Assembly (NCBI GenBank): GCA_046590205.1
Contig: JBKJTT010000068.1
Location: forward strand, 4,819-68,818
Source of the DNA: Candidatus Kapaibacterium sp.
GTDB lineage: Bacteria; Bacteroidota; Ignavibacteria; Palsa-1295
Length of the DNA: 64,000 bases
Direction: 5' to 3'
In this document: piece by piece, positions 6,731-49,890 of the stretch
How positions within the stretch are numbered: the first letter of the stretch is position 1
Layout: the number at the start of each line of letters is the position of its first letter
Made by a program: the position numbers and the translations under genes
Notes under the pieces: model-generated
Seen by the model: only the letters and a program-made list of their open reading frames with translations
The model's database searches: none
What the model was told of the DNA's origin: nothing

Positions 6731-7630
6731 ATGCACACTGCTATTGATCATCTCCAACCGGAAATTGCGTCTTCTTTAGGCAACTTTGAGCTTGTCGCGA
6801 AGTTCGTTGTCGAAGGGTTTATTACAGGACTACATAAATCGCCGTATCACGGATTTTCTGTCGAGTTCGCACAGCACCGCCCATATATGCCGGGAGATGC
6901 GATTCGCAATATAGATTGGAAGCTCTTCGCTCGGACAGACCGACACTTCGTAAAGCAGTTCGAGGAAGAGACGAATCTGAAGGCACATATCATACTCGAT
7001 ATTTCGCGCTCGATGAATTATACGAGCGGCAAACACATCACGAAGTACCGCTACGCTTCGATACTTGCTGCTTCACTTGCATATCTTCTGATTCGTCAGC
7101 AGGATGCCGTCGGGCTTGGCTTGTACGATGAGGAAGTAAAGCTTTTTATGCCTGCACGGCTCAAGACAAGTTACTTGCGCGAGATACTCAAGGCAATCCA
7201 AACGGCAGAGCCCTCGAATAAAACAAAGACTGCATCAGCGTTACGCTCATTACTCGAACGGCTTAAACGACGCGGTCTTGTTATTGTCATTAGTGATTTT
7301 CTTGGTGATGCCGATGAGATTATCACATCACTCAAGCTCCTGCGTCATGCCGGACATGAAGTGATTGCATTTCAAGTGCTTGACCCCGTCGAGAGAAACT
7401 TTGCTCTTGATGTGAGCGATGCAACTATCGTTGATATGGAAACCGGTGAATCGCTAAAAACACAGCCGTACCAATTACAAGAAGCGTATCGTAAGGCAAT
7501 GGGAGAGCACATCGAGAAGCTCCGTCATGAACTTGCCAACGAGAGGATAGATTATCTGCTTATTGATACAACTATTCCGTTCGATATCCCTTTACGGGAA
7601 TATCTCTACAAGCGACAAATGTTATTGTAG
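6731..7630 (+). CDS. DUF58 (vWA-like) domain protein
   Basis: The DUF58 signature is present: HGFSVEF...YMPGDAIRNIDWKLFARTDRHFVKQFEEE. Confidence 0.75.
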   Translation: MHTAIDHLQPEIASSLGNFELVAKFVVEGFITGLHKSPYHGFSVEFAQHRPYMPGDAIRNIDWKLFARTDRHFVKQFEEETNLKAHIILDISRSMNYTSGKHITKYRYASILAASLAYLLIRQQDAVGLGLYDEEVKLFMPARLKTSYLREILKAIQTAEPSNKTKTASALRSLLERLKRRGLVIVISDFLGDADEIITSLKLLRHAGHEVIAFQVLDPVERNFALDVSDATIVDMETGESLKTQPYQLQEAYRKAMGEHIEKLRHELANERIDYLLIDTTIPFDIPLREYLYKRQMLL

Positions 7631-7666
7631 AAATAGAATCTTAGATGTAGTATACAACTTCTTTCA

Positions 7667-9307
7667 ATGACAGAGAAAAACACAGGGACCCCTACACTTG
7701 AGGAGCGAATTAAAACTCTGCAGCATACAATAGAAAACGGTAATCATCCGATACCCGAACTCCTCCTTCAAACGGAAGCTCTTATCACCGAAGCAAAAGA
7801 ATTGGGTGATAATGACGCCCTCTACAAACTTCTCACTGCAAAAGCTTCACAACTCTATTTTTGTGGCAAGCATGAGGAATCAAAAGAGTTTTACCTCGAA
7901 GTATTAGAGCAATGCCTGGCAGAGAATCGAAAAGAAGCACTCCCAAGAATTTATCTTGCCTTAGGCAGGCTTTATTCTACCATGCAAGATGACCGAGTCG
8001 CGCTTGATTATATTCACTTATCAAAAGCCGCCGCCGAAGAGGTAGATGATAAAGAAATCATTGCAGAGGGCAATATACTCAAAGGCATAACTCTCGCCAA
8101 GAGCCAACAGTACAATGAAGCACTTGACGCTTATAACGAAGCTGCACGATATTCATACGAAACGAATAACACCCGAAGAATGGGCGCTATCTTCTTTTTG
8201 ATGGCACAGCTTCATCATCATGCTGAAAACTATCAATCTGCGAAAGAATCATGTGAGCTTGCAATAAAATACTTCACCGAGTGTGACAATAAACGCGGAA
8301 TACTTATTGCGACAACACGACTTGCCTCGATCATCAGCGCTCTTGATGACCATACCAGAGCACTTGATATCCTCAATGAGCATGAAGGACAGGTAACACA
8401 TTTTTCACTCCCATATATATCATGCGGGTTCTATACCATTAAAGCAGAGATTCTTTTGGCGGTAAAAGACTACAGCCGTTGCGAAGAAACGTTACATCTC
8501 GCTTATGGATTTGTATTAGAATCAAATAATCCTCGCAACTTACTTGACCTCTACACAACCTTTATTAGTCTTTATCTACAAACCGACAGAATTTCTCAAG
8601 CCAGGGAGTACCTTGAGCAGGCATATACTATCGCAAAGGATAATAATGATTCTCATTGGGAGATGAAATTGCACAAGCATGAATCTGACCTGTATGCCCA
8701 GATCGGCGACTATCAACAGGCTCTCACACAATATATCCTTTACCATGAACAGGATAAAAAAATAGCTGCCGAAACAACTGAAGAGTGGCTTGCCATTATA
8801 CGCATTAATCATGAGCTTATTGAGAAAGAGCGCGAATCAGAAATTTACCGGCTTCGGTCAGAAAAACTCCAGCGAGAGCTTGTCAGTAAGTCAACGCACC
8901 TTGCTTCTGAATCGGAGATATTGACACGTTTCAGAGAAGAGCTAAAGGAAGTACTCTCCGAGAGTACCGAAGCCAGCGTTATCCTCCGTAAAATTAAGGA
9001 GAAGGTTATCGAAATTCCAATGTCTGCAGTAAATTGGGAGGAATTCGACAGACACTTTCATGATGCACATCCTGATTTTACCAAAAACCTCCTCCAACGC
9101 TTCCCCGACCTCACCCCAATGGAAGCAAAAGTATGTACACTACTTAAGGTTGGACTTACTTCTAAAGAGATTGCCCATATCCTTGTCCTTTCTGAAAGAA
9201 GTATTGAGAACCACAGGTATCGCCTCCGCAAGAAGTTGGGCTTTGGCGAGCAGAATATTTCCCAATTCCTCAATAGCGTAGAAACACAACTGGTACCATC
9301 GCGGTAA
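7667..9307 (+). CDS. TPR-repeat protein with a C-terminal LuxR/GerE-type HTH (transcriptional regulator)
   Basis: N-terminal TPR-like repeats are followed by a C-terminal LuxR-type helix-turn-helix (LTPMEAKVCTLLKVGLTSKEIAHILVLSERSIENHRYRLRKKLG). Confidence 0.7.
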   Translation: MTEKNTGTPTLEERIKTLQHTIENGNHPIPELLLQTEALITEAKELGDNDALYKLLTAKASQLYFCGKHEESKEFYLEVLEQCLAENRKEALPRIYLALGRLYSTMQDDRVALDYIHLSKAAAEEVDDKEIIAEGNILKGITLAKSQQYNEALDAYNEAARYSYETNNTRRMGAIFFLMAQLHHHAENYQSAKESCELAIKYFTECDNKRGILIATTRLASIISALDDHTRALDILNEHEGQVTHFSLPYISCGFYTIKAEILLAVKDYSRCEETLHLAYGFVLESNNPRNLLDLYTTFISLYLQTDRISQAREYLEQAYTIAKDNNDSHWEMKLHKHESDLYAQIGDYQQALTQYILYHEQDKKIAAETTEEWLAIIRINHELIEKERESEIYRLRSEKLQRELVSKSTHLASESEILTRFREELKEVLSESTEASVILRKIKEKVIEIPMSAVNWEEFDRHFHDAHPDFTKNLLQRFPDLTPMEAKVCTLLKVGLTSKEIAHILVLSERSIENHRYRLRKKLGFGEQNISQFLNSVETQLVPSR

Positions 9308-9699
9308 ATCCTTTTTGCCGTCCGGTTAAAGATTTATTTGAATTGAGTACTTTTTGAGTAGTGGGAAGTACTTAATGTAGAGGTATATTTGCATTGTATA
9401 TAATGCCATGTATAACAATATGATAACCACACAAATAGGTGCACCTTCAAGTAGTATGGAATTCGTATTCCTTTGGTGTACAGATAATGAAGCGGTGTAT
9501 GATCTAGGATAATGATTAAACAGCCATGTTTCTTGAGTGGGGGTGAGACCCTTTTTTAGAGATATAGAATACACGCTTCGTATGAAAACGCCCGATGATA
9601 TATCCAAGGAACTTGGAAATGTCATCGGGCGTTGTATTGATTGTGAGACTTATAGGTGTAGGGGGGTTCCATTTAGGCCCTTTGTATCTAGAGTCAAGG

Positions 9700-9745
9700 T
9701 GAGAGAAAAGCCCCGTTGACTTCGGTTGACGGGGTTTATTTTTTG
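9700..9745 (+). terminator. Intrinsic terminator-like hairpin about 80 nt upstream of the M24 peptidase start
   Basis: ccccgttgac ttcg gttgacgggg forms a stem (with two G-U wobble pairs in RNA) and is followed by tttattttttg. Confidence 0.5.
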
Positions 9746-9824
9746 CCCACCGAAAAAAATCGTAATATGCGAAGTTTTCTTTCTCCCTTTGGTGTTATCC
9801 ACGCCCAGTATTAACAAGGTATTA

Positions 9825-10901
9825 ATGGCAAGACTTGCACGACTTCAACGGACGGTACGCGATCATGGGCTTGATGCCTTAGTCGTAACTCACCTGCCTA
9901 ACATCAACTATCTCATCGGTTATACCGGCTCGAACGGTATCCTCGTCGTTCCGGCGCAGGGTAAACCACATTTCTTTACCGATTTTCGCTATAAATCGCA
10001 AGTCAAGATAGAAGTTGCAGGTGCGAAGATCTCTATTGTTGATAGAGAGAAACAACTCCTTGATGCCTTTGTTGAGAAGCAACTCTTTAGTGATTTTGAT
10101 GCTGTGGGCTTTGAAGAGTACAAGTGCCCCTATCACGTCTATGATTTTATCCGCAAGAAATTCCGTCATTTGAAACTCGTTGCAAAACGAGAGATGGTCG
10201 AGACAATGACGATGATCAAGACAGATGATGAGATCGACGCAATCGCCAAAGCAGCAGCAATCGGTGATCAGGTCTTTACAAAAATACTTGATGTTATTAA
10301 ACCGGGCGTTACCGAACTTGAGGTTTCGGCAGAGATAAGTTACCATGCCAAAAAGCTTGGCGGCGAAGGCGATGCCTTCGAGATTATCGTTGCAAGCGGC
10401 GAGCGCACTGCTCTTCCGCACGGTATCGCAACCGATAGAAAGATCAAAAAGAACGAACTCGTCACAATTGATTTTGGCTGCCGCTACAAAGGATTTAATT
10501 CCGATATGACGCGCACCGTATCTGTCGGAAAAGTATCAACCGAGCTTCAGAAGATTTACGATATCGTTCGGGTTGCACAACAGCGCGCAATTGATAAAGC
10601 AAAGCCTGGCATGAACGGCAGAGAACTTGATAATGTCGCGCGTGATTACATCACGCTTCACGGCTACGGCTCGAAGTTCGGGCATGGTACCGGGCATGGC
10701 ATTGGTATCGAAGTACATGAAGTCCCCATCATTGCACAGCGAGGCGAACGCTTTATCCTTGAGCCGAGCATGGTATTCACTATCGAACCGGGTATCTATG
10801 TTGATGGTGTAGGTGGTGTGCGTATTGAAGATGATGTTGTCATTACAAATGACGGATGCACCGTTCTTAATAAAACTACGAAGGACTTGATCGTTCTTTA
10901 A
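9825..10901 (+). CDS. M24-family Xaa-Pro aminopeptidase (PepP/PepQ-like)
   Basis: A creatinase-like N-terminal domain precedes an M24 metal-ligand region (HGTGHGIGIEVHE...). The start is set at the internal ATG at 9825 (MARLARLQ); the upstream part of the ORF overlaps the terminator. Confidence 0.8.
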   Translation: MARLARLQRTVRDHGLDALVVTHLPNINYLIGYTGSNGILVVPAQGKPHFFTDFRYKSQVKIEVAGAKISIVDREKQLLDAFVEKQLFSDFDAVGFEEYKCPYHVYDFIRKKFRHLKLVAKREMVETMTMIKTDDEIDAIAKAAAIGDQVFTKILDVIKPGVTELEVSAEISYHAKKLGGEGDAFEIIVASGERTALPHGIATDRKIKKNELVTIDFGCRYKGFNSDMTRTVSVGKVSTELQKIYDIVRVAQQRAIDKAKPGMNGRELDNVARDYITLHGYGSKFGHGTGHGIGIEVHEVPIIAQRGERFILEPSMVFTIEPGIYVDGVGGVRIEDDVVITNDGCTVLNKTTKDLIVL

Positions 10902-10920
10902 TAACTGAAAAAATAGTAAA

Positions 10921-10949
10921 TAAAAAAGGCAGCTATTCGCTGCCTTTTT
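10921..10949. terminator. Bidirectional intrinsic terminator between the convergent M24 peptidase and lipoprotein genes
   Basis: aaaaaaggcagc tattc gctgcctttttt is a perfect stem flanked by an A-tract and a T-tract. Confidence 0.7.
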
Positions 10950-10952
10950 TAT

Positions 10953-11339
10953 TTAATTAATCACGAGGGTATCCCGCACCGTATCACGCAAGAACCCTTT
11001 ATAAAAATCCGGCTTCTCGAGCGCAAGCCAGCTTGTGTAGGTCCCGAGTGCTAACCCCGTTGGATGAGCCGTCACTTTTATCGGATGGGAGGAGATTGTA
11101 TCCCCTTCGGTTGCAAGATTATATTTAATGATCGATGTATCCCCTGCCCCTGCAATAAATACGGGGAACGGGCAGCCGCAGGTAACGACGGAGTTTACAG
11201 TACGAGTTGAGTCTGTTGCACGGAGGGTAGTTTTGGATGAATTATGCACGAGCATATTTTCCTCCGGCTCCGAAGCAGTCGGTGTGCAGGCAGCAAAAAA
11301 TGCTGCCGGTAGAAGTATGAGGAGAACTGATCTTTTCAT
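10953..11339 (-). CDS. Hypothetical lipoprotein
   Basis: A signal peptide with a lipobox (FFAACTP) is present. There is no recognisable domain. Confidence 0.5.
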   Translation of the reverse strand: MKRSVLLILLPAAFFAACTPTASEPEENMLVHNSSKTTLRATDSTRTVNSVVTCGCPFPVFIAGAGDTSIIKYNLATEGDTISSHPIKVTAHPTGLALGTYTSWLALEKPDFYKGFLRDTVRDTLVIN

Positions 11340-11399
11340 GGGTACTATTTAATACTACTTTATGAAATGGTATCAACGGCGAATTAGTTCTACTTCGCA

Positions 11400-12155
11400 A
11401 TGCTCGTTACTACTGACGCTATAGTTCTTCGCTCGCGCAAACAGGGGGATACCTCGAAGATATGTGCTATCTATACAAAGGAATACGGGCTGGTTGATGT
11501 CATCGCAAAGGGTGCAAGAGAAATGAAATCCAAGTTTGCCGGTTCGCTCGAACTTTTTATGCACATCACCGCCGTGTTCTATAAAAAGCAAGGCAAAGAA
11601 CTGTATCTGCTGGCAAAAGCAGAGAATGTAAGCCGCATGTCGGGTATTACGAACTCGCTTGCAAAGATAGAATCTGCGACAAAGATTGCCGAGCTGCTGC
11701 TAAATACCCTCCATGACGAAGAAAAGAACCCAAAACTTTTTACATTACTTTCGGCGACATTTGAAGCGATCTCCGCTGCCGCGACCGACGATCACGCTCG
11801 CTCGTTCTTATTCAGCTTTTATAATGAATTTGCAAAACTTGGCGGATTTGAGTTACACATCCCCGCCGAGATGCCACAAGGAAAGTACCCTGTCTTCGAG
11901 ATAGAGAAGGGCTGCGTCCTGATGATGGATTCCCCAATGACTGCTGAAAGCCGCTTTTATCTCCCGATAAGTCCGGAAGTCTGCGCTATCCTCCGTTTCT
12001 ACCAAAATAACGACGACCCCACGAAGGTGAACTTGAAAGTATCCGAGAATGCCGGCTTTATGCTCGAGCGTCTCTTTGCCGCGTATTTCTCTGCCCACAT
12101 AGAAGCTATCGGTAATAAAAAAAGCAAAAGCACGAAAGTATTTGCGAGCATGTAA
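11400..12155 (+). CDS. recO: DNA repair protein RecO
   Basis: The N-terminal OB-fold region (AIVLRSRKQGDTSKICAIYTKEYGLVDVIAKGAR) and an overall length of 251 aa are consistent with RecO. Confidence 0.8.
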   Translation: MLVTTDAIVLRSRKQGDTSKICAIYTKEYGLVDVIAKGAREMKSKFAGSLELFMHITAVFYKKQGKELYLLAKAENVSRMSGITNSLAKIESATKIAELLLNTLHDEEKNPKLFTLLSATFEAISAAATDDHARSFLFSFYNEFAKLGGFELHIPAEMPQGKYPVFEIEKGCVLMMDSPMTAESRFYLPISPEVCAILRFYQNNDDPTKVNLKVSENAGFMLERLFAAYFSAHIEAIGNKKSKSTKVFASM

Positions 12156-12181
12156 CTCGTTCTTTCGGCGGTACGTAAAAG

Positions 12182-13999
12182 ATGGCACATCGGCATGTTG
12201 GTCTATGTTATACACGTCCTAAATTACTACTACTGTTGGCTGATATTTTTATTTCATACTCCCGAAAAGATGCCGAACTGGCTATTGCGCTTGCCGAGCG
12301 GCTGCGTGGGACCGGTGCAACCGTTTGGATGGACACCGTTGCCATCGTGGCAGCTCAAACCTGGAGCGCGGAGATCGTGAATGCGATAAAAGAATGCAAG
12401 GCACTTGTGGTCTTGCTTTCTCCTGATTCTGTCGCATCACAGAATGTAACAAAAGAGGTCGCGCTTGCATCCGAAATGCGAAAGATCATTGTCCCTGTTA
12501 ATATAAGTGAATGCGAACTCAACGATGCAATGATCTATGCGCTTGCCGGACTGCACCGCATTTCCTATCATGATGAAGAGGCACTCTTGCGTTCGTTCGA
12601 GAAGCATGGGTTTGGTAATAGAGGAGCGGAAGTAAGTCCATCAGAACCGAAAGAACCGACTGAAGCTCGCACTGACAGAATGGAATGTGTCCGTCCCACT
12701 ACTCTGCACGTTGCCGTGCTTCCATTCGATGACCTATCTCCATCAAAAGATAATGACTGGTTCGCCGATGGGATGATGGATGAGTTAATTACTACATTCG
12801 ACTCGCTTGATACAGTAGTAGTCTGCCCTCGTACAGATGTGCTTTATTACAAAGGGAAACATCCGAAGTTACAAGAGATAGTCGATGATCTGGGTGTCAC
12901 TCATGTCATCGAAGGGAGTGTGCAGAAGATACTTGAGAAGATACGTATCAATGTGACGCTCACTGATGCGCGAAAGAATCAGCGGGTCTGGAGCGAAACG
13001 TATCAGGGTACGTTCGATGATGTATTTGAACTGCAAGATAAAACATGTTTTGCTATCACCGAAGCATTGCGTATCAGCTTGACCCCTGAAGACGAAAAGA
13101 AAATAGAACGCAAACCGACTGATAACACCGAAGCATACGAGTTACTTTTAAAAGCAACTGAGTATTACTATAGACAAACACGCGCCGACTATGAACATGC
13201 GTTGCAGCTCTATGAAGTTGCCGCAAAGCTTGACCCGCTTTGCACTCCGGTGTTTTCTGGTATAGCATCCTCGTCGCTCGAACTCTATAAGTCGTACTCA
13301 CATGATACGGCTGATCTGAAAAAAGCAGAAGACTCTATTGCTAAGATGACTGCCATCGAAGGAGAGACTGCCAGATCACTTCGTTTGATAAGTAATATCG
13401 AGTCATTGCGCGGCAACAACGAAGAAGCGCTTCGGTATGCACAAAAATCTCTTCAACTTGACCCGGACTATTCACCCGCATATCAAGCACTTGGTCTATC
13501 TCTAACGGCGCTTGGTCGTCTGGGCGAAGCTGCCGATGCCAGAGAGCGGAACGTGCAATTGACCATCAATAGTATCCACGTTCACTTTGGGTTGCTCATT
13601 GTGCTCGATCAACTTGGGGACATGGCGCGTTTGCAAGCAGCAGCACTTCGGGCTATACCCTTTTATGAAAAACATGTTCGGTTCAATCCCGATGATGTCA
13701 ATGCACAAGTGCAATTAGCAATGGTGTTGTACTTTGCGGCACGACCTGAAGAAGCAAAACTAAAGGCAGATGAGCTTGTCCTCGAGAAAACAATTGACGG
13801 CAATGCTCTCTATAATCTTACATGTCTCTACCTAAAACTAACAGACACCTCTCGCGCACTTGCAACATTTCGCCGAAGCATCGAAGCCGGATTTACCGAC
13901 ATCAAACTCTTCCGCACCGACCCCGATCTCGCACTCCTTCGCGAAAGCCCGGAATTTGAGCTGTTAGTAGGAGAGTTGGAAGAGAAGATAGCCACGTAG
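12182..13999 (+). CDS. TIR domain / TolB-N-like / TPR repeat protein
   Basis: An N-terminal TIR domain (DIFISYSRKD...VWMD...LLSPDSVASQNVTKEVALA) has a candidate catalytic Glu in the KEVALA stretch. The middle segment resembles the TolB-N-like module seen in TPR signalling proteins. The C-terminal half is TPR repeats. There is no Walker A motif and no transmembrane segment. Confidence 0.7.
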   Translation: MAHRHVGLCYTRPKLLLLLADIFISYSRKDAELAIALAERLRGTGATVWMDTVAIVAAQTWSAEIVNAIKECKALVVLLSPDSVASQNVTKEVALASEMRKIIVPVNISECELNDAMIYALAGLHRISYHDEEALLRSFEKHGFGNRGAEVSPSEPKEPTEARTDRMECVRPTTLHVAVLPFDDLSPSKDNDWFADGMMDELITTFDSLDTVVVCPRTDVLYYKGKHPKLQEIVDDLGVTHVIEGSVQKILEKIRINVTLTDARKNQRVWSETYQGTFDDVFELQDKTCFAITEALRISLTPEDEKKIERKPTDNTEAYELLLKATEYYYRQTRADYEHALQLYEVAAKLDPLCTPVFSGIASSSLELYKSYSHDTADLKKAEDSIAKMTAIEGETARSLRLISNIESLRGNNEEALRYAQKSLQLDPDYSPAYQALGLSLTALGRLGEAADARERNVQLTINSIHVHFGLLIVLDQLGDMARLQAAALRAIPFYEKHVRFNPDDVNAQVQLAMVLYFAARPEEAKLKADELVLEKTIDGNALYNLTCLYLKLTDTSRALATFRRSIEAGFTDIKLFRTDPDLALLRESPEFELLVGELEEKIAT

Positions 14000-14036
14000 C
14001 AAATCACAAAAATCCAATAACCCCATTAACCCGACG

Positions 14037-16578: not shown

Positions 16579-17256
16579 ATGTCATTACTTACCTTACATA
16601 AAGAAGAAGAACAGGCATTAAAGCAGCCGAACGGGCAGCCACAGGGACCTACAGAACAGGACCGTCTGGACTTTGCTACCTACACTGCTTTTATTAAGGG
16701 TGATGACAAAGCATTTCTTCAGCTTTATAACCGCTACGAAGCGCCCCTTTTGCTCTATTGCCGTAAAATGTGTGCCGATAGCCGTGTCGCCGAGGACTCG
16801 TTCCAGGAGACATGGATGCATATTTTCGAGCTTCGCGGCAAGACAACAAGTTTGGCTAATTTCCGCCCGTTCCTCTTTCGCACAGGTCGGAATGTCTGCC
16901 TCAATAAAATGCGGCATGAGATGGTTCGAATTCGCAGGTCGGTTGAGTTAACCGATGAAAGCGCAAGCGTTTCGTACCAATCGGAATCTGAGCAGGAAGA
17001 GCTTCGCCAGCTTATTTCACGCGCACTGAGCAAACTGCCGATCGCCGAGCGCGAGGTATTTGTACTCCATGAGTACAGTAATTTTCATTATCATGAGATC
17101 GCATCGATCTTAGGTCGAAGCGATGCAAGTATCAAAACACTTGCCTTCAGGGCAAGAACCCGTTTACGAAAAGTGGTTTCAAGCTGGCTTGGTCTTGGCG
17201 AAGAAGCAGACCCGGCGGCACATAATCAGTTGTTTGCCAAGCTATGGAAGGAATAA
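16579..17256 (+). CDS. RNA polymerase sigma-70 factor, ECF subfamily
   Basis: Region 2 (DSFQETWMHIFE) and a region 4 helix-turn-helix (LPIAEREVFVLHEYSNFHYHEIASILGRSDASIKTLAFRARTRLRK) are present. Confidence 0.8.
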   Translation: MSLLTLHKEEEQALKQPNGQPQGPTEQDRLDFATYTAFIKGDDKAFLQLYNRYEAPLLLYCRKMCADSRVAEDSFQETWMHIFELRGKTTSLANFRPFLFRTGRNVCLNKMRHEMVRIRRSVELTDESASVSYQSESEQEELRQLISRALSKLPIAEREVFVLHEYSNFHYHEIASILGRSDASIKTLAFRARTRLRKVVSSWLGLGEEADPAAHNQLFAKLWKE

Positions 17257-17262
17257 TATAAT

Positions 17263-17895
17263 ATGAATATTCGTGACGAAGAGTTAGTACAACGGTATTT
17301 TGACCATTCGATGTCATCTGGTGAGGAACAAAACTTCCTCATTGATGTCGCCGCACGCGACGATATGCGGATGGCGTTCCGTTCACAGCTTGAACTACTC
17401 AAAGCGATCAAGTTTGATAAAGATATTTTAGGCGGTACAGGACTTGTCCGCGAGCGAACCCTTGCCGCACTTGGCTTATCGGCAATGCTCACGGCAACGA
17501 CCGATGAGGCAATCGCCGCGCCGACCTTCATGCAGAACGTGAAAGGGTTTCTCGCGAAACCATACACGATGCTTATTGCAGGTGTCGTCGCTGGTGGATT
17601 AGCAACGTATGCAGTGCTCCCGACGAACACTGTTATGGTAGCTCCGGTAAAGACCGAACAACAGATAGTACAGCCGTCATCGCTGGAGATTCAGATGCCG
17701 GAAGTCAGTGCTCCTGAAATTCAGAATAACCTGTCGCCTGCCGAAACGAAGCAGACAAACGTTGTAAAGCCAACTGCTAAGCAGGCAGTGACGAATACGA
17801 AGCCCGCGGAGACTACACCTATTGTGAATACGAACGGTGTATCACCAGAAGTCAAAAACAAGGTGGTTATCCGCAAACCGAGCGAGGTAAAATGA
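17263..17895 (+). CDS. Putative anti-sigma factor (single-pass membrane protein)
   Basis: The gene lies immediately downstream of the ECF sigma gene (6-nt gap). It has an N-terminal anti-sigma-like helix region, one transmembrane helix (YTMLIAGVVAGGLATYAVL) and a Pro/Thr/Val-rich extracytoplasmic tail. Confidence 0.5.
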   Translation: MNIRDEELVQRYFDHSMSSGEEQNFLIDVAARDDMRMAFRSQLELLKAIKFDKDILGGTGLVRERTLAALGLSAMLTATTDEAIAAPTFMQNVKGFLAKPYTMLIAGVVAGGLATYAVLPTNTVMVAPVKTEQQIVQPSSLEIQMPEVSAPEIQNNLSPAETKQTNVVKPTAKQAVTNTKPAETTPIVNTNGVSPEVKNKVVIRKPSEVK

Positions 17896-18027
17896 TTCTT
17901 TCATTCACATGATCCTTCGTTAGTACGAGATGGGGTGGGCATGTTGCCCGCCCCGTTTCGGTAAAAGGCGAAGGTGGTGCAAACGTGAACTTTCTCCTGG
18001 GATAACTTATTGTTATAGTAGAGAAAT

Positions 18028-20181
18028 ATGCTGCTTCTTGACGCAGTCCTTATGAGTGTCATGTTCGGTACCAAAACACACAGCCCTTCACGAGCGACCT
18101 CCCGTTTCGGGTATGTAGTGTCCCTATTACTTATACTCGCGTCATCCTCTTACTCGCAGATCGCATTGCTTTCCAAGAACGATAAACCTGCTCGGCTCGG
18201 TATCAGCGGACTTTATGGTACGAACATCTCAAGCACTCATATCGAAGAGTTTAACGGTCAGGAATTCTGCGGTGTCTTCGAGCAAGGCGAAGCACCGGGA
18301 TTATCAGTTGGTGTCTTTGGTGAGATACCATTTGGGGCAAGCAGCTTCTCGCTCATCCCCAGTCTGTCGTACCGTAACCTATCAAGCAGCTTTACAACAA
18401 ACCCGTTCAACTTAGAGCATGCTTTTGATATTGGTGCAGGAGATACAGTCCGCATTGACCGCGAACGAGTTTACCAGACTAACATCTCGACTATAGCTTT
18501 CGGAGCATCAGCCGGATGGCGACCGATTGAACAGCTCCGTTTCGATGCAGGATTATCATTCGGATTTTTCGCATCACATAGCTATACCAAGACGGAGCAT
18601 CTCCTGACACCGGATGCAGTCTATACATCAAACAACCTCTCGACGCTTGAACTTGAGAGTGGTGAGATGCCAGTCAACTCATTCCTGCTTACACTTGAGA
18701 CAGGTATCGGCTATGACTTCCCTCTTTCGGATAAGGTAACGTTCTCGCCTCGGATCAATGCAAGTATCCCGCTAACAGCTATTTCCGAAACTGGCGGTTC
18801 AAGTTATAAAACATGGACTATCGCCGGCGGAGCGCAGCTATCAGTTGCACTTGATAAAAAAGAAGAACTCTATATCCCGCCAATACCGCCGGAGCTACCG
18901 ACTGCCCCGCCTGCAGAAAAACCGGTTGCTATTCGTGAACCTGATAAGAGTGTTCTTCGCGTCAATGTCAGGGCTGTTGGTATTACAAGCGGCGGCGAGG
19001 AAGTCCCGGAGCCAATAGTCTCAATACAAAATGTTCGCGTCACAGACCTTGCGCCGACACTCAACTACGTATTCTTTGATGACGGTAAAGAGGAAATACC
19101 TTCTCGCTATCAGAAGATAACAGCATCCGGCACACGCGGCTTTAACTACTCAATGTTCAATACCGAAAATGCACTTGAGATACATTATAGCGTCTTGAAC
19201 ATCATCGGTAAACGACTACAATCTGAACCGCAGGCAAAGATAACCTTAACAGGGACAAAGAGTCTTCACTCGGATGGTGATTCACTTAGTGAAGATAACC
19301 TTGCAATGCAACGCGCACAGAATGTTGCAAACTACTTGCAAAATGTGTGGGGTATCTCTTCATCCCGCATCCGTATCAAGAGCAAGGGATTGCCGGATCA
19401 GCCATCGGATGATAATACATTGACTGGTCAAGCAGAAAATAGACGAGTTGAAATTAGCACTTCATTCCCAAAGATACTTGACCCGCTTGAGACAAAACGT
19501 ATAGAACGCACTGCAACACCGCCGCGCATTGCATTCTATCAGGATATTGTATCAGATACTGGTATTAAGTCGCTTCAGATAACTATCAAACAAGGCGACA
19601 AGATAATCGAGCGCATTGACGGACTCACCGACGAGCGAATTAAAGAACAACTTTGGAATATACCATCTGAAAGCATTACTGCTGGTTCAAGTGATTCTGT
19701 TCTCTGGACTATGGATATTGTAGATTTTGCCGGAAATACAGCGCAGGTAACAGGTGCTATCAATGTAAAGCTCGCGGAATCTACTCTTGATGTTAATAAA
19801 CGCGACACCATCGTTGATAAAAGTTTAGAACGCTTCCAACTCATCCTCTTTGATTACAGCCGTGCATCATCGTCACTTGATAACAATGTCAGTGCCCTGC
19901 TTGATAGAGTATCGTCATCGGTATCACCCGATGCCAAAATATATCTTGTCGGCTATACTGACATTACAGGCGACCAGTCATATAACGACCGACTCTCCCT
20001 TGATAGAGCAAGCAAAGCGTCGCTCTTACTATCATCAAAGCTGAAAACACTTGGCATACGTTCGCCGCAGTTCACGCTTGAAGGACGCGGCTCACGCGAA
20101 CTTCTCTATGATAATACAAATGCCGAAGGCAGATTCCTTTCTCGTACTGTGCGCATCTCGATTGAGAAGGATATTAAGTGA
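18028..20181 (+). CDS. OmpA-family protein with two C-terminal OmpA-like peptidoglycan-binding domains
   Basis: Two OmpA-like modules are present (ITLTGTKSLHSDGDS...NLAMQRAQNVANYL...NRRVEIS and IYLVGYTDITGDQSYNDRLSLDRASKASLLL...RTVRISIE). The N-terminal region is signal-peptide-like, and the exact start is uncertain. Confidence 0.65.
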   Translation: MLLLDAVLMSVMFGTKTHSPSRATSRFGYVVSLLLILASSSYSQIALLSKNDKPARLGISGLYGTNISSTHIEEFNGQEFCGVFEQGEAPGLSVGVFGEIPFGASSFSLIPSLSYRNLSSSFTTNPFNLEHAFDIGAGDTVRIDRERVYQTNISTIAFGASAGWRPIEQLRFDAGLSFGFFASHSYTKTEHLLTPDAVYTSNNLSTLELESGEMPVNSFLLTLETGIGYDFPLSDKVTFSPRINASIPLTAISETGGSSYKTWTIAGGAQLSVALDKKEELYIPPIPPELPTAPPAEKPVAIREPDKSVLRVNVRAVGITSGGEEVPEPIVSIQNVRVTDLAPTLNYVFFDDGKEEIPSRYQKITASGTRGFNYSMFNTENALEIHYSVLNIIGKRLQSEPQAKITLTGTKSLHSDGDSLSEDNLAMQRAQNVANYLQNVWGISSSRIRIKSKGLPDQPSDDNTLTGQAENRRVEISTSFPKILDPLETKRIERTATPPRIAFYQDIVSDTGIKSLQITIKQGDKIIERIDGLTDERIKEQLWNIPSESITAGSSDSVLWTMDIVDFAGNTAQVTGAINVKLAESTLDVNKRDTIVDKSLERFQLILFDYSRASSSLDNNVSALLDRVSSSVSPDAKIYLVGYTDITGDQSYNDRLSLDRASKASLLLSSKLKTLGIRSPQFTLEGRGSRELLYDNTNAEGRFLSRTVRISIEKDIK

Positions 20182-23100
20182 GTACGATAAGAACATATCG
20201 TCTCACCCTTGTTGCGCTCTTCGCACTGTTGTTTGCAGCAACCCTGCGAAGCCAGAATTGCGAATCGAACATGCTCTTCATACAAGACTCTGGTGGATAT
20301 GCTTACGTCCCGAAGTTCTCTGCAACAAAACTTGGCACGTCATTTACGATAGAGTTTTGGGTACAGTCACTTCGGAGCCAAAGTGGTAAAGGAATTCTTG
20401 AGATAGGGAGAACCGGTGATAGCGGAACAATACGATTTGAGATCGATAGTTCATTCTTAGTCAAAGCAACAACATCTTTTACAAATGCTACTGTATCGCT
20501 GACCACACCGTCATTTACTCAATCACAGTGGAATCACGTTGTGCTCTCGCTCTCAACAAAAGATACACTTAAATTATATCTTAATGGTACTCTTGTAGCA
20601 AGCCAAAGAGTATCGACACGCACATTACGAACACTCGGGGATACGCTTTTTATTGGTACAAGCAGTTTATTGCAGACAACACTTTATGGTAATATTGATG
20701 AGCTTCGTATTTGGAACAAAGAACGTACCCTCGCGGAGATACAAATTCACAACACCTCACCGGTTTCGGATACCGCATCAGGTCTGGCTGCATACTACCG
20801 TATGGATGATAGATCAGGGCTTGGAAGACTTTGCGATTTTTCATGGAATGGAAATAATGGGATACTCGTAGGCAATGCTTCTACTACCGCGTCCACTTCA
20901 CCTATCGGAGCACCCGACCATAAGGGGTACATGCTCAAGGCACGGGAAAAGATCGTTGATATGGGGACCATTTCGTGCGGCGGCTCAAAAGCTGCAACGG
21001 TTCATATCACCAACACTGATATTGATACACTTGGAATAAAATCGATCGGGTATTCGAGCGGAAATATCTTCAGTATTACGCGGACACCGCCGTTCCCTAT
21101 CTATCCGGGCCGAACGGAAATAATATCAGTCCAAGCAGACGCAAAAAGTATCGGTACGTTCTTTGACACGCTTATCATTGCAAGCTCGACTGAATGCGGA
21201 GGCATCGTAAAGATAATTTTTAAGATCCGAGTTGACTCAGCCGGAGTGGAATTTCTCAATCCAGAAGTGCTCTTAAGTAAGATCCCAATATGTGATCTAC
21301 CCAGAAAATCATCGGTACAGCTCAAGAATACCGGCGGCTCGAAAGTAACTATTGATTCATATCAAATTCTGGATGATCAAGCAATAGAGATCATCAGTCC
21401 TGCACTACCTTTTACTATCGATAGCGGAGCGACACAAGAAGTTCTCTTTACCATCCGTGACCTTCCACCTTCAAAATTTATCACACGCCTACGTATCCAT
21501 ACAAAAGAATGTTCAAGGATAGCGGAAGTTTCTTTTGCAGGTGAACGGACAGATGTTGGTTTTATCTTGCCGGAGGAGATGGTCTATCCTGCGGCGAACA
21601 TGACTTCCAGCGGAGTAATGTACGACAGCACATTCTTTATCTACAATACAGGCACCTCGGAGATATTTATTAATGATATGAGGATCATCGGAGATCCTAT
21701 GTTCCGAATCGTAAAACCAATTTCCGGGAAAATTTATCTTGTCCCCGGTGATACCGCTGAAGTAACGATACGCCTTGATGCACGGACGTGCGGGGAGTTT
21801 TCCGCAAAGCTCGCACTAAAAGGAGTGCCCTGTGGCATAGATACCTCCATTCGGTTGAATGCTGTTGTTGATGGTCCGCTCATCGAACTCAATGATGAGT
21901 ATGACCTTGGCTCATCATGCTTCGCACATGATACGACAATAACATTCGTTAACCGTTCGGATATCACGACCATTCTTGGCAAACCGAGCTTTGATAAAAC
22001 AAATGTATTCACATACTTCGATCAAGGGCTCCTCCCGAAACAACTTGCACCCGGTGATTCGGTAACAATAGCTCTACGCTTTAATCCTCTTATCCCGGGA
22101 GTACATACAGTGCAGGCAACGCTTCCGCTTACTCCGTGCGGGGAGGTTAGTATTACACTAAAGGGACTTTTAGGAGTTGGGTTAATTGCAGTGAGTGATT
22201 CTCTCATTGATTTCGGTCTCGCCTGTGACCTTATACCACAACAAGAAAGCATCAACATCACGAACAATGCCGGAAAAAACGTAACTGTAACGACTGCCGA
22301 CATTATTGGCTCACTCGATTATACGCTTCTTTCCCCATTGCCACCGTTCACTTTGAGTGATGGTGAGACAAAAAATATCATAGTAGAATATCATCCGGCT
22401 TCTCTCGGGCTTGATTCGGCGAACCTTGTGATGAACGATAATGGCTGCTTTGTTACCTCTATCCCTATAGGCGGAATCCGAGAGATAACATCGCTTAAAC
22501 TTGTGAGCGATACTATTGTCTTTGATATGACATGCCCAACGAAGCGTTCTCTAAAGAGTTTTGGTATTGAGAATCTCGGTCTCGGAACGGTATCGATCAC
22601 GAGTGTAACATTCGGCGGTACAACGTTCGGGATAGGCAATCTTGGGAATGTGAAATTAGGTGCAAAACGAGTTACTACCCTTCCTATTTCATTTAATCCG
22701 AAAACGTTGGGCTTGCATGAAGATATGCTCACCATCGTTTTTGGTCCATGTGATGATACTCTTGTCTTGCACTTGAGGGGGATCGGCGGACCTATCGCAC
22801 GCCTCATTCAAGAAGACACACTTTTTGATTTCGGTGAGGTAAAGATCGGTAACACAAGAACACTTTGTGTAGAGTTCACAAACCCAAGCTGTTTGCCGAT
22901 CATTATAGAGAAGTCGAGCATCTTACTTGATGGTTCGTTCGAGTTAGATTTTACCGACAGTACATTGGAACACTTCCCATACAGTGTGACAAAAGATAAC
23001 CCGATAACATTTTGTTTCCGATATACACCAACGATCGAACGAGAGGACTCAAGAATTTTTAGAATACGTTTTGCCGGGGACAGCGTAACAACGATTCTAA

Positions 23101-24719
23101 AGGGAACGGGCATCACCCCACATATTACTCATACTCATCGAGTTCTTGATTTTGGTGATGTCCTTCTCGATAGTACAAGGACACTCTCTGATACAGTAGC
23201 AAATACTGGTAAACTTCCTGTAGTCTTTGTCACTACTCAACCAATCAGTTCTGTATTTACTGTTCTCACTTCTCCTGTAGGATTAGCTTCAGGAGATGAC
23301 TCTCTCTTACGTGTATCCTTCACCCCAAGAGCAGCAATGCTCTATGAGGACACAATCTTCATGCAATGGGAGCAAACCGTTGATACGATCATCCTTCGCG
23401 GAAGAGGTACAGGGCACGGCGCACTCGTGAATACTACACAAGTTGATTTTGGTGATGTGCGTGTCAATACATCTCAAGACGCAAAGATCGCTATTACAGC
23501 CGGAGATGGATTCCCCGTAATCCTCTCGAACGTTGCTATTACGGGTAGTTCGTTCGGTTTCAGCCCCCCAAGTACTAATACGCTATCCTCATCACTTGAT
23601 ACTGCATTTGTAATTATCACATATAGTCCTACTCTTGAAGTGAGTGAATTGGTCCAGCTCACCTTCGACGACAATGCAGGCAACAAAAAGTCTGTAAATC
23701 TCAAAGGACGAGGCGTTGAGGCACATCTGCGAATTGATACACAGTTCGTTGATTTCGGTGTAGTAAAAATTGGTACTGAAAAAACAGCATTGATACCAGT
23801 ACTGAATACCGGTGACTACCCACTTTCTATATCAGAAGCAAGACCCGATATTCGTTCTGTTTTTGACTTGATAAAATTACCAGGTGACATCCCTGCACGT
23901 TCAAGCGAATACTTTGAGTATGTATTCAAGCCGGTAACTGACATTGAGTATTTTGATGCCGTAACCATCACTGCAGACGCTCCAGAAAAAGAACGTACTA
24001 TTATCATTCGCGGTGAAGGCACATTCGGAGATATTATCTATTCGGTTGGAAATGTTACTCTTAACGTAGGTGATATAGTTGAACTGCCTGTTTCAATTGG
24101 TGGTACTGACTTTGCTTCTGTTGCTATTGATAGCTTCACGTGTGTAGTTCATTATGATCCGACCGTCATGTTCGTCCATGATGTCATAACAGAGAATACA
24201 CTTTCAAGTGGGATGATGATGATCGTTGATCGTCTGCCCAAAGACAGCATTATCCGTATTCACGGATTTGCAAAACGATTACCAAGTACACCCGGTGTCC
24301 TCTTTAACTTGAAGGTAGAAGCATTACTCGGACCTATCGATACCACAAGTGTCATGCTTGCCTCATCATCACCGAAACATCAATCACCGCAGGCAGCGCA
24401 AGGGCTATTTACCGTTGCTGATTGCGGAAAATACCGAACAAATATTCACTACAAGGGACCTTACTCGCTTTCTGCTCCGAAGCCGAATCCGGTGACTTCG
24501 ACGCTGTCGCTCTCGTATGAACTCGGTCTTGACGGATTTGTCTCAATGGATATTATCGATGAACTCGGAGTGGTCGTAAAACGAATTCTTTCCGACTCAC
24601 AAAAAAGAGGAAAGCACAACGTTGTTGTAAATGTCGCCGACCTGCCCAGTGGTATGTTCACCTATATCCTACAAAGTTTGGAATACCGCGAAGCAAAGAG
24701 CTTTATTATCTCAAAATAA
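20178..24719 (+). CDS. Giant (1513 aa) secreted adhesin-like protein with, in order, a LamG/ConA-like lectin domain, multiple Ig-like (ASH/choice-of-anchor-like) repeats, a cohesin-like domain and a T9SS C-terminal sorting domain
   Basis: A GTG start overlaps the upstream stop codon (operon coupling). The signal peptide is followed by the LamG signature (FTIEFWV...LYLNGTLVAS...DELRIWNKERTLAEIQ). A repeated DFG.V.IG...T..V.N.G domain occurs many times. The tail matches a cohesin-like segment followed by the sorting domain (...LSAPKPNPVTSTLSLSYELGL...GMFTYILQ...). Confidence 0.75.
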   Translation: MSTIRTYRLTLVALFALLFAATLRSQNCESNMLFIQDSGGYAYVPKFSATKLGTSFTIEFWVQSLRSQSGKGILEIGRTGDSGTIRFEIDSSFLVKATTSFTNATVSLTTPSFTQSQWNHVVLSLSTKDTLKLYLNGTLVASQRVSTRTLRTLGDTLFIGTSSLLQTTLYGNIDELRIWNKERTLAEIQIHNTSPVSDTASGLAAYYRMDDRSGLGRLCDFSWNGNNGILVGNASTTASTSPIGAPDHKGYMLKAREKIVDMGTISCGGSKAATVHITNTDIDTLGIKSIGYSSGNIFSITRTPPFPIYPGRTEIISVQADAKSIGTFFDTLIIASSTECGGIVKIIFKIRVDSAGVEFLNPEVLLSKIPICDLPRKSSVQLKNTGGSKVTIDSYQILDDQAIEIISPALPFTIDSGATQEVLFTIRDLPPSKFITRLRIHTKECSRIAEVSFAGERTDVGFILPEEMVYPAANMTSSGVMYDSTFFIYNTGTSEIFINDMRIIGDPMFRIVKPISGKIYLVPGDTAEVTIRLDARTCGEFSAKLALKGVPCGIDTSIRLNAVVDGPLIELNDEYDLGSSCFAHDTTITFVNRSDITTILGKPSFDKTNVFTYFDQGLLPKQLAPGDSVTIALRFNPLIPGVHTVQATLPLTPCGEVSITLKGLLGVGLIAVSDSLIDFGLACDLIPQQESINITNNAGKNVTVTTADIIGSLDYTLLSPLPPFTLSDGETKNIIVEYHPASLGLDSANLVMNDNGCFVTSIPIGGIREITSLKLVSDTIVFDMTCPTKRSLKSFGIENLGLGTVSITSVTFGGTTFGIGNLGNVKLGAKRVTTLPISFNPKTLGLHEDMLTIVFGPCDDTLVLHLRGIGGPIARLIQEDTLFDFGEVKIGNTRTLCVEFTNPSCLPIIIEKSSILLDGSFELDFTDSTLEHFPYSVTKDNPITFCFRYTPTIEREDSRIFRIRFAGDSVTTILKGTGITPHITHTHRVLDFGDVLLDSTRTLSDTVANTGKLPVVFVTTQPISSVFTVLTSPVGLASGDDSLLRVSFTPRAAMLYEDTIFMQWEQTVDTIILRGRGTGHGALVNTTQVDFGDVRVNTSQDAKIAITAGDGFPVILSNVAITGSSFGFSPPSTNTLSSSLDTAFVIITYSPTLEVSELVQLTFDDNAGNKKSVNLKGRGVEAHLRIDTQFVDFGVVKIGTEKTALIPVLNTGDYPLSISEARPDIRSVFDLIKLPGDIPARSSEYFEYVFKPVTDIEYFDAVTITADAPEKERTIIIRGEGTFGDIIYSVGNVTLNVGDIVELPVSIGGTDFASVAIDSFTCVVHYDPTVMFVHDVITENTLSSGMMMIVDRLPKDSIIRIHGFAKRLPSTPGVLFNLKVEALLGPIDTTSVMLASSSPKHQSPQAAQGLFTVADCGKYRTNIHYKGPYSLSAPKPNPVTSTLSLSYELGLDGFVSMDIIDELGVVVKRILSDSQKRGKHNVVVNVADLPSGMFTYILQSLEYREAKSFIISK

Positions 24720-28394: not shown

Positions 28395-29435
28395 TTGAGA
28401 GTAGCAGCGATGAACACACAACGGCTTGACATCATAAACATTGGTCTGATGCTGCTCTCGTTCGGCTCGGCGTTGCTGTTCCCTGCCGAAACATTTCTTG
28501 TTGCTATTATGATTCTTGGACCGTTGCATTATCTTACTGAAATGCCATGGCTTGAGAAGAAGGGGTTCTTCATTCCTTCAAAAAAGATGGTATGGCTGCT
28601 TGTAGGAATGGGAGTACTCATTATTTTTCTGCAATTTGGGAAAGATCTACTCCCTGAAGGAAGCGGTAAGTGGACATTCCGAACAATGGGCATGTTAGCT
28701 GGAGCATGTTTCCTCGTAGCGTTTTCGCTTACAATGTTCAAGAAGTTATCTTTAATACTAGTCGCTCTTGTTGTCATTCTTATTGCTTCATGGTTTCTTT
28801 CCGAATCACCACAATATACACAGCTTTTTCTAAATCTATTCCCTACACTTATCCATGTCTTCATTTTTACGAGTGCATTTATCCTTTTCGGCGCGCTCAA
28901 ACATAAAAGTAAAACCGGAATCGCTTCACTTCTTGTTTACACAGTATGCACGGCGTTGATATTCCTTTTTACTCCAAGTGCTTCAGATGCAACCCTTAAT
29001 CCGACTGTCATTAATCTATATTACTATCAAGCGGATATACACATGAGCTTGGTCTCGATACTTAACTTCCCTACTATCGGTCCGGATAATTATGATTTGG
29101 ATAATCTCATTTTCTATTCGCCTGCGGGAATAACAGTAATGAGATTTATTGCCTTTACCTACATGTATCACTTCCTCAACTGGTTCTCAAAAACATCTAT
29201 TATCAAGTGGCATGAAAATAGTCGGTTCGTCCTTGTAGGAGTGTTTAGTGTTTGGATTGGTGTGCTCATATTATATTGGATCGATCTATCGTTGAGTTTG
29301 AATATCATCTACGTACTGGGTATCTTCCATGTGATACTTGAGTACCCTCTCAATCACCGATCGTTCGTTGGTATTGGTCAAGAGCTCAGGAAGCTCTTTG
29401 CCGGTGGTTCGCTCACACCTGCCGATTCGCGATAA
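28395..29435 (+). CDS. Hypothetical polytopic membrane protein
   Basis: About 9-10 hydrophobic segments are visible. The motifs HYLTEM and FHVILEYPLNHRSF may mark an intramembrane enzyme, but no family could be assigned. The start could instead be the internal ATG at 28410. Confidence 0.5.
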   Translation: MRVAAMNTQRLDIINIGLMLLSFGSALLFPAETFLVAIMILGPLHYLTEMPWLEKKGFFIPSKKMVWLLVGMGVLIIFLQFGKDLLPEGSGKWTFRTMGMLAGACFLVAFSLTMFKKLSLILVALVVILIASWFLSESPQYTQLFLNLFPTLIHVFIFTSAFILFGALKHKSKTGIASLLVYTVCTALIFLFTPSASDATLNPTVINLYYYQADIHMSLVSILNFPTIGPDNYDLDNLIFYSPAGITVMRFIAFTYMYHFLNWFSKTSIIKWHENSRFVLVGVFSVWIGVLILYWIDLSLSLNIIYVLGIFHVILEYPLNHRSFVGIGQELRKLFAGGSLTPADSR

Positions 29436-29484
29436 AAGGAAATACTTCCTGCGTATATCGGGTTTTCTATACGAGCAATTTACT

Positions 29485-48708: not shown

Positions 48709-48761
48709 GATTAACGACTATATTTGTTGTATCTTTGTACTCTATATCTGCAAAATACACC

Positions 48762-49343: not shown

Positions 49344-49380
49344 GGGAGAAAGCAACACCACACACAAAGCTATACTATAT

Positions 49381-49890
49381 ATGATTGCTCTATTATTCAT
49401 ATTTCTATTCATTACTAATCCGATAGAGGTGTCATCTCTTAGGTTTGGGATTTCTGCGGGTGAACTCAAAAAAGATATGAAGAATAAATACATGTCCTGT
49501 GATACCCTCTATACAGGAGTTGTGGAGCCAAGAATAGAATATCTTTGCTACGCACCTGTCATATTCCACAGACTTTCTATGTTTATGAGTGTTCAGCTTG
49601 ATAGGAACGGGAAGGTCGTTAGGTATAGATTCCAAAATGCCAAGTCCACCGACTTTGAACAGCTCGTCCCCAACATCGCGCGAACGAAAGCCGACAGCAC
49701 GATACCCGTCAAATACACAGCTGATGATTTTCTAATACTTACAGAATCGCTCTCAAAAATATTAGGTGAAGGAAAACCATCCGTTGAGAATGGAGTAGCG
49801 ACAATGGATTGGAGTAATGACAGTCAAAAATTGATTACGGTGATGAATGTAGAAGAAGGCGTGATTGAGCTTTTCTATATGATGTATTAA
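49381..49890 (+). CDS. Hypothetical protein (N-terminal hydrophobic segment)
   Basis: This is a 169-aa ORF in a lower-GC stretch, with a signal- or anchor-like N-terminus and no recognisable domain. Confidence 0.45.
   Translation: MIALLFIFLFITNPIEVSSLRFGISAGELKKDMKNKYMSCDTLYTGVVEPRIEYLCYAPVIFHRLSMFMSVQLDRNGKVVRYRFQNAKSTDFEQLVPNIARTKADSTIPVKYTADDFLILTESLSKILGEGKPSVENGVATMDWSNDSQKLITVMNVEEGVIELFYMMY

Follow-up and report, generated by a model that had tools for sequence, protein, structure and literature searches.

A TIR domain on a CadC-type sensor module in Candidatus Kapaibacterium: a probable NAD-cleaving enzyme from a tandemly duplicated protein family

Introduction

Bacterial TIR domains have been studied almost wholly in multigene defence systems or in STAND-type receptors. 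Here we describe a protein of a different design, encoded at positions 12182 to 13999 of a 64-kb stretch of Candidatus Kapaibacterium sp. DNA (contig JBKJTT010000068.1; "the window" below means this whole stretch of 64,000 nucleotides). In it, a candidate TIR enzyme is fused directly to a CadC-type module which elsewhere serves cyclases, kinases and transcription factors. Among described systems, Escherichia coli TIR-II also combines TIR with tetratricopeptide repeats (TPRs); it is a validated anti-phage protein that requires the TIR catalytic residue, is grouped among single-protein systems, contains an ATPase in only about 30% of its homologues, and is described as widespread, phages included (Nat Commun 2024, PMC11350192). 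Compared by description only, TIR-II and the window's protein both carry TIR and TPRs on one polypeptide, with no obligatory ATPase. They differ in that no domain of the TolB N-terminal (TolB-N) fold is reported for TIR-II, and in that the window's family is not found in phages or plasmids and is concentrated in Kapabacteria and Ignavibacteriota. A first-pass annotation of the window had called TIR plus TPR without a STAND module a less-described arrangement; the architecture is as it said, and TIR-II provides a precedent (PMC11350192).

Other known systems resemble the protein in part. Avs and TIR-STAND-TPR (NLR-like) receptors likewise begin with a TIR effector and end with a TPR sensor within a single chain, with sensor-driven oligomerisation expected, whereas the window's protein has no STAND/NB-ARC NTPase and has a TolB-N-fold domain in the middle. 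Thoeris ThsB and BcTir/Tpr share a TIR domain with a catalytic Glu and, for BcTir/Tpr, a TPR part. BcTir/Tpr is a two-gene system (bioRxiv 10.1101/2023.05.26.542521). Both are multigene, with a separate effector or TPR protein; the window's family has no conserved partner, and no effector gene lies beside the TIR gene, either in the window or conserved in 51 family loci. Unlike SPARTA, the window's protein has no APAZ domain and there is no prokaryotic Argonaute (pAgo) in its flanks. SARM1 has ARM and SAM domains, forms octamers and carries its TIR at the C terminus, whereas the window's protein begins with its TIR and would be regulated by the TolB-N-TPR part.

A recent systematic Thoeris survey explicitly excluded stand-alone TIR proteins, and a survey of TIR proteins includes actinobacterial ones of more than 700 aa with an N-terminal TIR and TPRs (PMC7075850). 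The literature that we searched held no paper tying TIR domains to the COG5616/TolB-N-CadC-like module or to Kapabacteria or Ignavibacteria. The CadC-type module on a TIR, the expansion in tandem arrays and the membrane-anchored relatives described below are apparently undescribed.

Results

Gene and architecture

The longest reading of the gene in the window's list of open reading frames (ORFs) opens with ATG and encodes 605 aa (12182..13999, + strand). The family consensus, MADIFISYS, starts at residue 19 of this reading, where there is an in-frame TTG (12236), and the true product is therefore probably the 587-aa protein that begins there. Residue numbers refer to this product unless the 605-aa ORF is named. 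The parts of the gene are:

12236..13999, + strand: probable true coding sequence of the TIR-TolB-N-TPR protein, 587 aa plus stop, with the consensus start at TTG
12236..12610, + strand: TIR domain, aa 1-125
12455..12457, + strand: codon of the candidate catalytic Glu, E74 (E92 of the 605-aa ORF), in the motif S-x-N-V-x-K-E
12611..12703, + strand: disordered, poorly conserved linker, aa 126-156 (pLDDT below 50 at 130-153)
12704..13075, + strand: alpha/beta domain of the TolB-N-terminal fold, aa 157-280
13076..13996, + strand: TPR solenoid, aa 281-587, the fastest-diverging part among paralogues
13805..13969, + strand: C-terminal "TPR end-of-group" cap (NCBIfam NF047558, TPR_END_plus, E=2.5e-17)

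A confident structure model, predicted from 113 homologues (mean pLDDT 91.7, pTM 0.73), places the TIR in residues 1-125, a disordered stretch of linker in 130-153, the alpha/beta domain in 157-277 and 17 helices in 284-586. In the numbering of the 605-aa ORF, Pfam TIR_2 covers residues 22-133 (E=4.9e-22), several Pfam TPR families match between about 395 and 570, and the NF047558 match lies at 542-596. Pfam, NCBIfam and the model thus bear out the TIR, TolB-N-like and roughly 300-aa TPR regions of the first-pass annotation. Profile searches, model and hydropathy likewise uphold its statement that there is neither a STAND/NB-ARC ATPase nor a transmembrane segment: no P-loop/STAND (NB-ARC/NACHT) domain was found by Pfam, NCBIfam or PADLOC or in the model, and the highest 19-aa Kyte-Doolittle mean is 1.43, within the doubtful N-terminal extension. 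The protein has no signal peptide or lipobox, and no TolB beta-propeller appears in Pfam matches or the model, the C terminus being all-helical TPR. It is probably cytoplasmic.

TIR domain and candidate catalytic site

The domain is SARM1-like and has both the flavodoxin-like TIR fold and the Glu in the alpha-C region of enzymatic TIRs. This Glu, E74, had been picked out in the first pass from the stretch KEVALA as a possible NADase residue, and it does stand at the catalytic position: it shows no variation among 113 full-length homologues or among 47 TIR domains from genomic loci. Profile-to-PDB alignments pair it with the motif Glu of known NADase TIRs, namely Cat1 (WCWDE), TIR-1/SARM1 (VHKE) and AbTir (WTNYE), and a pairwise alignment pairs it with position 77 of the SPARTA TIR-APAZ protein. 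We take the motif Glu aligned with E74 to be the catalytic residue in SARM1 (E642), AbTir (E208) and SPARTA (E77).

The top structural matches of the domain are NADase TIRs. PADLOC profiles match at the level of the TIR only, with the pAgo-associated TIR (4e-13, spanning residues 21-104 and thus only TIR) and TIR-SAVED (5e-13) ahead of ThsB (5e-6); by these profile scores, the nearest profiles are those of NAD-depleting effector TIRs. In both monomer models the pLDDT is low over residues 37-41, the region of the BB loop, through which enzymatic TIRs self-associate to assemble the active site. From the conserved motif and the fold, the TIR domain is a probable NAD-cleaving enzyme.

A protein of 824 aa in the PDB, named "Tetratricopeptide repeat protein" (9m0n/9umd), has an N-terminal TIR-like region that the family's TIR profile matches at E=5e-4. 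The top structural matches did not include it, and we found no paper on it in the literature searched.

A CadC-type module shared with cyclases and kinases

Structure comparison assigns the middle domain to the TolB-N/FlgO/PelC/CsgG fold, and by sequence alone the assignment is marginal (FlgO, E=0.007; TolB, E=0.024). Its near-invariant motif is LPF-D-LS...DN-WFADG. As in CadC-type and COG5616-TPR proteins, the alpha/beta TolB-N-fold subdomain is followed by a helical TPR-like one. The CadC periplasmic domain matches the module with Foldseek TM-scores of 0.62-0.64, and the NCBIfam models for CadC (residues 194-426 of the 605-aa ORF, E=2.7e-5) and for a "peptide modification system cyclase" (residues 238-457 of the same ORF) match it weakly. 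On the structure model, the TolB-N-fold domain and the first TPR repeats form a CadC-periplasmic-domain-like sensor module. CadC itself (ToxR-like, PDB 3LY7) has a winged-helix DNA-binding head, a transmembrane helix and a periplasmic module, whereas the window's protein has a TIR head, a TPR region about twice as long and, between head and module, a disordered linker with no transmembrane helix; identity between the two is only 9%. The linker is 17% identical between pairs of family members, and a transmembrane helix takes the same position in a paralogous subfamily.

The module recurs under other heads. On rhizobial megaplasmids the annotated matches are adenylate/guanylate cyclases (528 records; over aa 126-583, some 458 aa, identity is about 30% and E=4e-45); in these class III adenylate cyclase-TolB-N-TPR proteins the C-terminal module is homologous and the layout of head, linker and module equal, with a cyclase as the head. 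Proteins of Acidobacteriota, Aminicenantes, Verrucomicrobia and others, with a Ser/Thr kinase or a zinc ribbon before a transmembrane helix, TolB-N and TPRs, share module and layout and also form arrays; most have the helix. Among 43 non-TIR relatives, the head is a Ser/Thr kinase in 18 and a zinc ribbon in 10. One polypeptide (P0019, 758 aa) combines TIR, adenylate/guanylate cyclase, TolB-N and TPR.

Family size and distribution

A word-indexed search returned 358 homologues at E<=1e-5, mostly of 570-600 aa and the same architecture. They are named "TIR domain-containing protein" in Kapabacteria and Bacteroidota, and "TolB-like protein" or "adenylate cyclase" in JGI records. An exhaustive search that used residues 1-283 as the query gave 410 representatives at E<=1e-30 and, at E<=1e-10, 34,584 clusters (both being counts of 50% clusters), the latter mixing TIR-only and TolB-N-only matches. 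TIR and TolB-N are contiguous in about 80 of the best 150 of these 410, and the remainder of the 150 are giant proteins with 2-7 TolB-N modules. Each domain is thus very common, and only a small subset of the proteins joins a TIR head to TolB-N. Among species-representative genomes, nearly all full-length matches belong to Kapaibacterium and to metagenome-assembled genomes (MAGs) of Ignavibacteriota/Bacteroidota; in other phyla the match is limited to residues ~159-581. The 113 aligned members share only 30-50% identity overall.

Larger forms occur as well. The protein at L001:6802-10011 (1069 aa; L numbers denote loci) has a TIR with two TolB-N-TPR modules, and P0121 (2837 aa) is of the giant type, with up to 7 stretches matched to the query, mostly TolB-N modules.

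Tandem arrays and paralogue divergence

The first-pass annotation described the protein as stand-alone. This is true of the locus itself, as the 64-kb window holds no paralogue of the TIR gene elsewhere, and not of the family, which is large and paralogous and, in related genomes, reaches 8 copies per array. Head-to-tail arrays of TIR-family genes hold 8 copies at L014, 6 at L008, 5 at L001 and 4-5 at L011, and the L001 array includes an 83% orthologue of the window's gene. Single MAGs carry at least 16, at least 13, at least 7 and at least 6 copies, all of these being lower bounds. Arrays, with copies in brackets, are:

L014:4745-18773 (8), TIR-headed
L008:1041-11514 (6), TIR-headed
L001:6802-21782 (5), TIR-headed
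L082:186-11615 (6), non-TIR, transmembrane/zinc-ribbon type, in a Verrucomicrobiae MAG
L061:382-8697 (5), non-TIR, transmembrane/zinc-ribbon type, in a Gemmatimonadales MAG

Divergence within arrays is uneven. Copies of the L014 array are 82% identical in TIR, 80% in TolB-N and 53-61% in TPR; for L008 the values are 69%, 64% and 41-49%. Per-domain estimates by the Nei-Gojobori method on these two arrays give a dN (nonsynonymous divergence) about 3 times higher in TPR than in TIR and TolB-N, and a dN/dS ratio (omega) of 0.22-0.35 versus 0.06-0.12. As judged from these comparisons, the pattern is one of a conserved head and a fast-evolving sensor, and the family's expansion resembles that of a receptor repertoire.

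Membrane-anchored relatives

In most of the kinase and zinc-ribbon relatives a strong transmembrane helix directly precedes TolB-N, so that the module would be extracytoplasmic; 7 kinase versions lack the helix. It is absent too from 79 of 88 TIR-family ORFs, the window's protein included. A paralogous TIR subfamily of 620-630 aa has a transmembrane helix in place of the linker and keeps the motif NV(T/V)KE. The transmembrane-type TIR-TolB-N-TPR loci are:

L001:16893-18770
L001:20540-21782
L011:2798-4705
L036:1212-3092
L043:449-2305
L047:10832-12688
L050:1468-3342
L057:9986-11992 (Verrucomicrobia)
L060:10001-11074

Lys and Arg are richer on the TIR side of the helix in 7 of the 9, which would put the TIR inside and the sensor outside. 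A cytoplasmic TIR, a single transmembrane helix and an outward-facing repeat sensor fit the topology of Toll-like receptors (TLRs). The likeness concerns these paralogues only and is one of topology, an outward solenoid sensor being joined through one helix to a cytoplasmic TIR. The order is reversed here, with the TIR N-terminal; the repeats are TPRs rather than leucine-rich repeats; and the TIR is probably enzymatic. This is an analogy, and a common origin of the whole architecture is not implied. The literature searched gave no description of membrane-anchored bacterial TIR receptors with a periplasmic sensor.

Locus and neighbours

The TIR gene follows recO on the same strand after a gap of 26-80 nt, and the two are probably co-transcribed. 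The first-pass annotation had placed the gene next to recO and outside any obvious defence island, and both points hold. Its immediate borders are:

11400..12155, + strand: recO (RecO_N and RecO_C in Pfam; TIGR00613, E=9e-29)
14000..14015, no strand: strain-variable junction directly 3' of the stop codon, where DNA homology with sister strains ends (blastn)

The recO-TIR pair is kept at L083, where the protein is 98% identical, and at L084 (92%); no other family locus has recO. DNA homology with these sister strains stops at most 16 nt after the stop codon (L083 aligns over 9636-14015, L084 over 11363-14000), and what follows differs: a protein with a type IX secretion system (T9SS) tail in the window, restriction-modification and DUF3800 genes at L083, and unrelated genes at L084. 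The TIR gene therefore borders a strain-variable spot, which in one strain holds a defence gene; this lends weak support to an immune setting.

The L083 restriction-modification gene is of the MmeI family, type IIL, and forms two overlapping, possibly frameshifted ORFs that lie with the DUF3800 gene at L083:8107-11714.

Clustering of every ORF of 100 aa or more in the 51 family loci and the window revealed no conserved partner gene; only family genes recurred, together with apparent antisense shadow ORFs. The few other neighbours that repeat are ordinary ones, encoding T9SS cargo, M16 peptidase, FAD oxidase, aldehyde dehydrogenase, LexA and an extracytoplasmic function (ECF) sigma factor. The 64-kb window consists of chromosomal housekeeping and surface-protein genes; defence genes and candidate receptors for TIR products are both lacking. 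No RNA families were found in it, and promoter and terminator scans around the TIR gene gave results at chance level.

Discussion

With moderate confidence, we consider the protein to be a self-contained, sensor-coupled TIR enzyme, a gated NADase with a role in defence or stress. We imagine that the TolB-N-TPR module binds a ligand (a peptide, a protein or a small molecule) or controls the oligomeric state; the relatives PelC, CsgG and FlgO, of the same TolB-N fold and from ring assemblies, would hint at the latter. Either event may gather the TIR domains. To our knowledge, the active site of every TIR NADase studied is created by self-association of TIRs, and by analogy with SARM1, AbTir, SPARTA, TIR-SAVED and Cat1 such gathering could complete the site and permit NAD+ cleavage. 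Since no conserved gene nearby could read a TIR-made signal, the simplest output would be NAD+ depletion leading to growth arrest or abortive infection, with the protein acting alone. Each paralogue may be tuned to a different trigger.

Several observations weigh against this reading, beginning with the fact that the enzymatic and phenotypic role of every family member is read from sequence. The near-invariant Asn N70 replaces the Trp of the W-x-x-x-E motif, four residues before the Glu; this position is Trp in AbTir, in Cat1 and in SARM1, from which the family differs in this respect also, and Gly in SPARTA, and substrate or product could therefore differ. The module is otherwise joined to classical signalling outputs (cyclase, kinase), and in most relatives and one TIR subfamily it would be extracytoplasmic, an odd site for sensing phage components. 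Phage genomes gave no family matches, viral contigs one weak TIR-only match alone, and plasmids only TIR-level or module-level matches, the family as such not being found. The family's concentration in a single lineage, where a genome can hold many copies, fits a lineage-specific expansion of signal transduction as well as or better than mobile defence. Genomic contexts of the family are mostly housekeeping rather than defence islands, which weakens the immune reading; the possibility of housekeeping contexts, raised in the first pass, thus proved largely right and not uniformly so, as the restriction-modification gene directly downstream at L083 illustrates. Nor is positive diversifying selection demonstrated in the L014 and L008 arrays, since no domain has an omega above 1, dS (synonymous divergence) is saturated (at least 1), and the TPR helices that line the groove vary to the same degree as the outer ones. 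Finally, the non-TIR versions form tandem arrays too (L082, L061).

Many of these points suit an alternative that we regard as possible, if the less probable of the two: physiological one-component signalling, in which the TIR makes a second messenger (ADP-ribose, isomers of cyclic ADP-ribose or related nucleotides) and the repertoire senses environmental or metabolic cues, intracellular for soluble forms and periplasmic for transmembrane ones. The module common to cyclases, kinases, zinc-ribbon proteins and CadC argues for it, as do the union of TIR and cyclase on one chain in P0019, the non-TIR arrays, the outward-facing sensor of the transmembrane subfamily, the absence of the family from mobile elements, and the housekeeping contexts with apparently vertical inheritance beside recO in close relatives. 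However, the 51 loci share no neighbouring receptor or effector for a signal made by the TIR, the 64-kb window holds none, and the TIR is nearest, in PADLOC, to NAD-depleting effector TIRs. We also know of no non-immune bacterial TIR signalling pathway. The first-pass annotation had suggested a signalling scaffold; as a signalling enzyme, the protein remains a serious rival case to the gated NADase, and only the non-enzymatic sense of the term is disfavoured, because the catalytic Glu is invariant. In that sense, the TIR would serve homotypic interaction, as in metazoan TLR adaptors, and the TPRs would recruit partners. TIR domains can serve as scaffolds (review PMC8494770), and the change of the motif Trp to Asn would be in keeping with this; yet a Glu invariant in some 113 sequences of 30-50% overall identity is unexpected of a pure scaffold, and the top structural matches are NADase TIRs, so we think this role unlikely.

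Two further explanations we rate lower still. The protein could belong to a multigene defence system (Thoeris-like, SPARTA-like, a CBASS/Pycsar effector or Avs) whose partners were missed, given TIR-level matches to the ThsB, pAgo-TIR, TIR-SAVED and CAP12/Pycsar TIR profiles. These matches are confined to the TIR, though; the 51 loci hold no conserved neighbour of any kind; and no pAgo, SAVED, cyclase-operon, ThsA-type or STAND domain is found in the protein or its flanks, which makes such membership very improbable. Least probable of all, to our minds, is a structural protein of the envelope or of the Tol-Pal/FlgO type, an idea prompted by JGI and NCBI names ("TolB-like protein", "FlgO family outer membrane protein") and by the TolB-N/FlgO/PelC/CsgG fold: signal peptide, lipobox, transmembrane helix and TolB beta-propeller are all lacking, and an N-terminal TIR would be cytoplasmic.

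More speculatively, Kapabacteria and Ignavibacteriota may possess a germline-encoded, tandemly duplicating repertoire of TIR receptors in soluble and membrane forms with paralogue-specific ligands, a counterpart of TLRs and NLRs; we offer this as a tentative idea. If true, the repertoire would have been built by placing a TIR NADase head on a module that carries cyclases and kinases in other bacteria, and if its output were a nucleotide signal, it would be the first TIR-based family for general signal transduction in bacteria. The arrays, the fast change of the TPRs and the membrane versions offer handles on how a TIR can be gated without an NTPase switch. They are relevant, too, to whether TIR enzymes serve bacteria in sensing other than phage defence, and to the possible origin of receptor repertoires by head-swapping on a common sensor.

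Other features of the window and related loci

A link of the TIR gene to DNA damage or the SOS response through recO and lexA was considered and dropped. In three MAGs lexA lies 279-390 bp from family genes, and a palindrome, AGGTGCYCATMAAAGCA, occurs once in each of four lexA-adjacent loci and in none of the other 81. Its positions are:

L007:8432-8448
L023:9760-9776
L037:7091-7107
L040:11826-11842 (- strand)

The window does not contain the palindrome, even when 3 mismatches are allowed. It is most simply lexA's own operator, a candidate for this lineage, and it therefore gives no evidence of SOS control of the TIR gene.

Upstream, a 2-kb segment of the window (7570-9635) with a TPR and LuxR/GerE regulator gene (7667..9307) is missing from L083, which is otherwise collinear with the window at 83-94% DNA identity. 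Downstream, 2.6 kb beyond the TIR gene, a row of genes (16579-20181) encodes an ECF sigma factor (16579..17256), a putative anti-sigma-like ORF that has no Pfam match (17263..17895) and an OmpA-family beta-barrel protein of 717 aa (18028..20181). Genes for ECF sigma factors also lie near family genes at L009, L016 and L019, 0.5-8.6 kb away.

Three ORFs in succession at 48735-50842 (202, 169 and 314 aa) have no Pfam match, and they lie where the GC content of the window is lowest (0.375 at 50001-51000). Two giant surface proteins, at 20178-24719 (1513 aa) and 29338-33483 (1381 aa), contain ASH/HYDIN-like Ig repeats; the second has a T9SS sorting tail, and its gene contains a local GC spike of 0.514 with a strong GC skew of +0.21 at 30001-31000.

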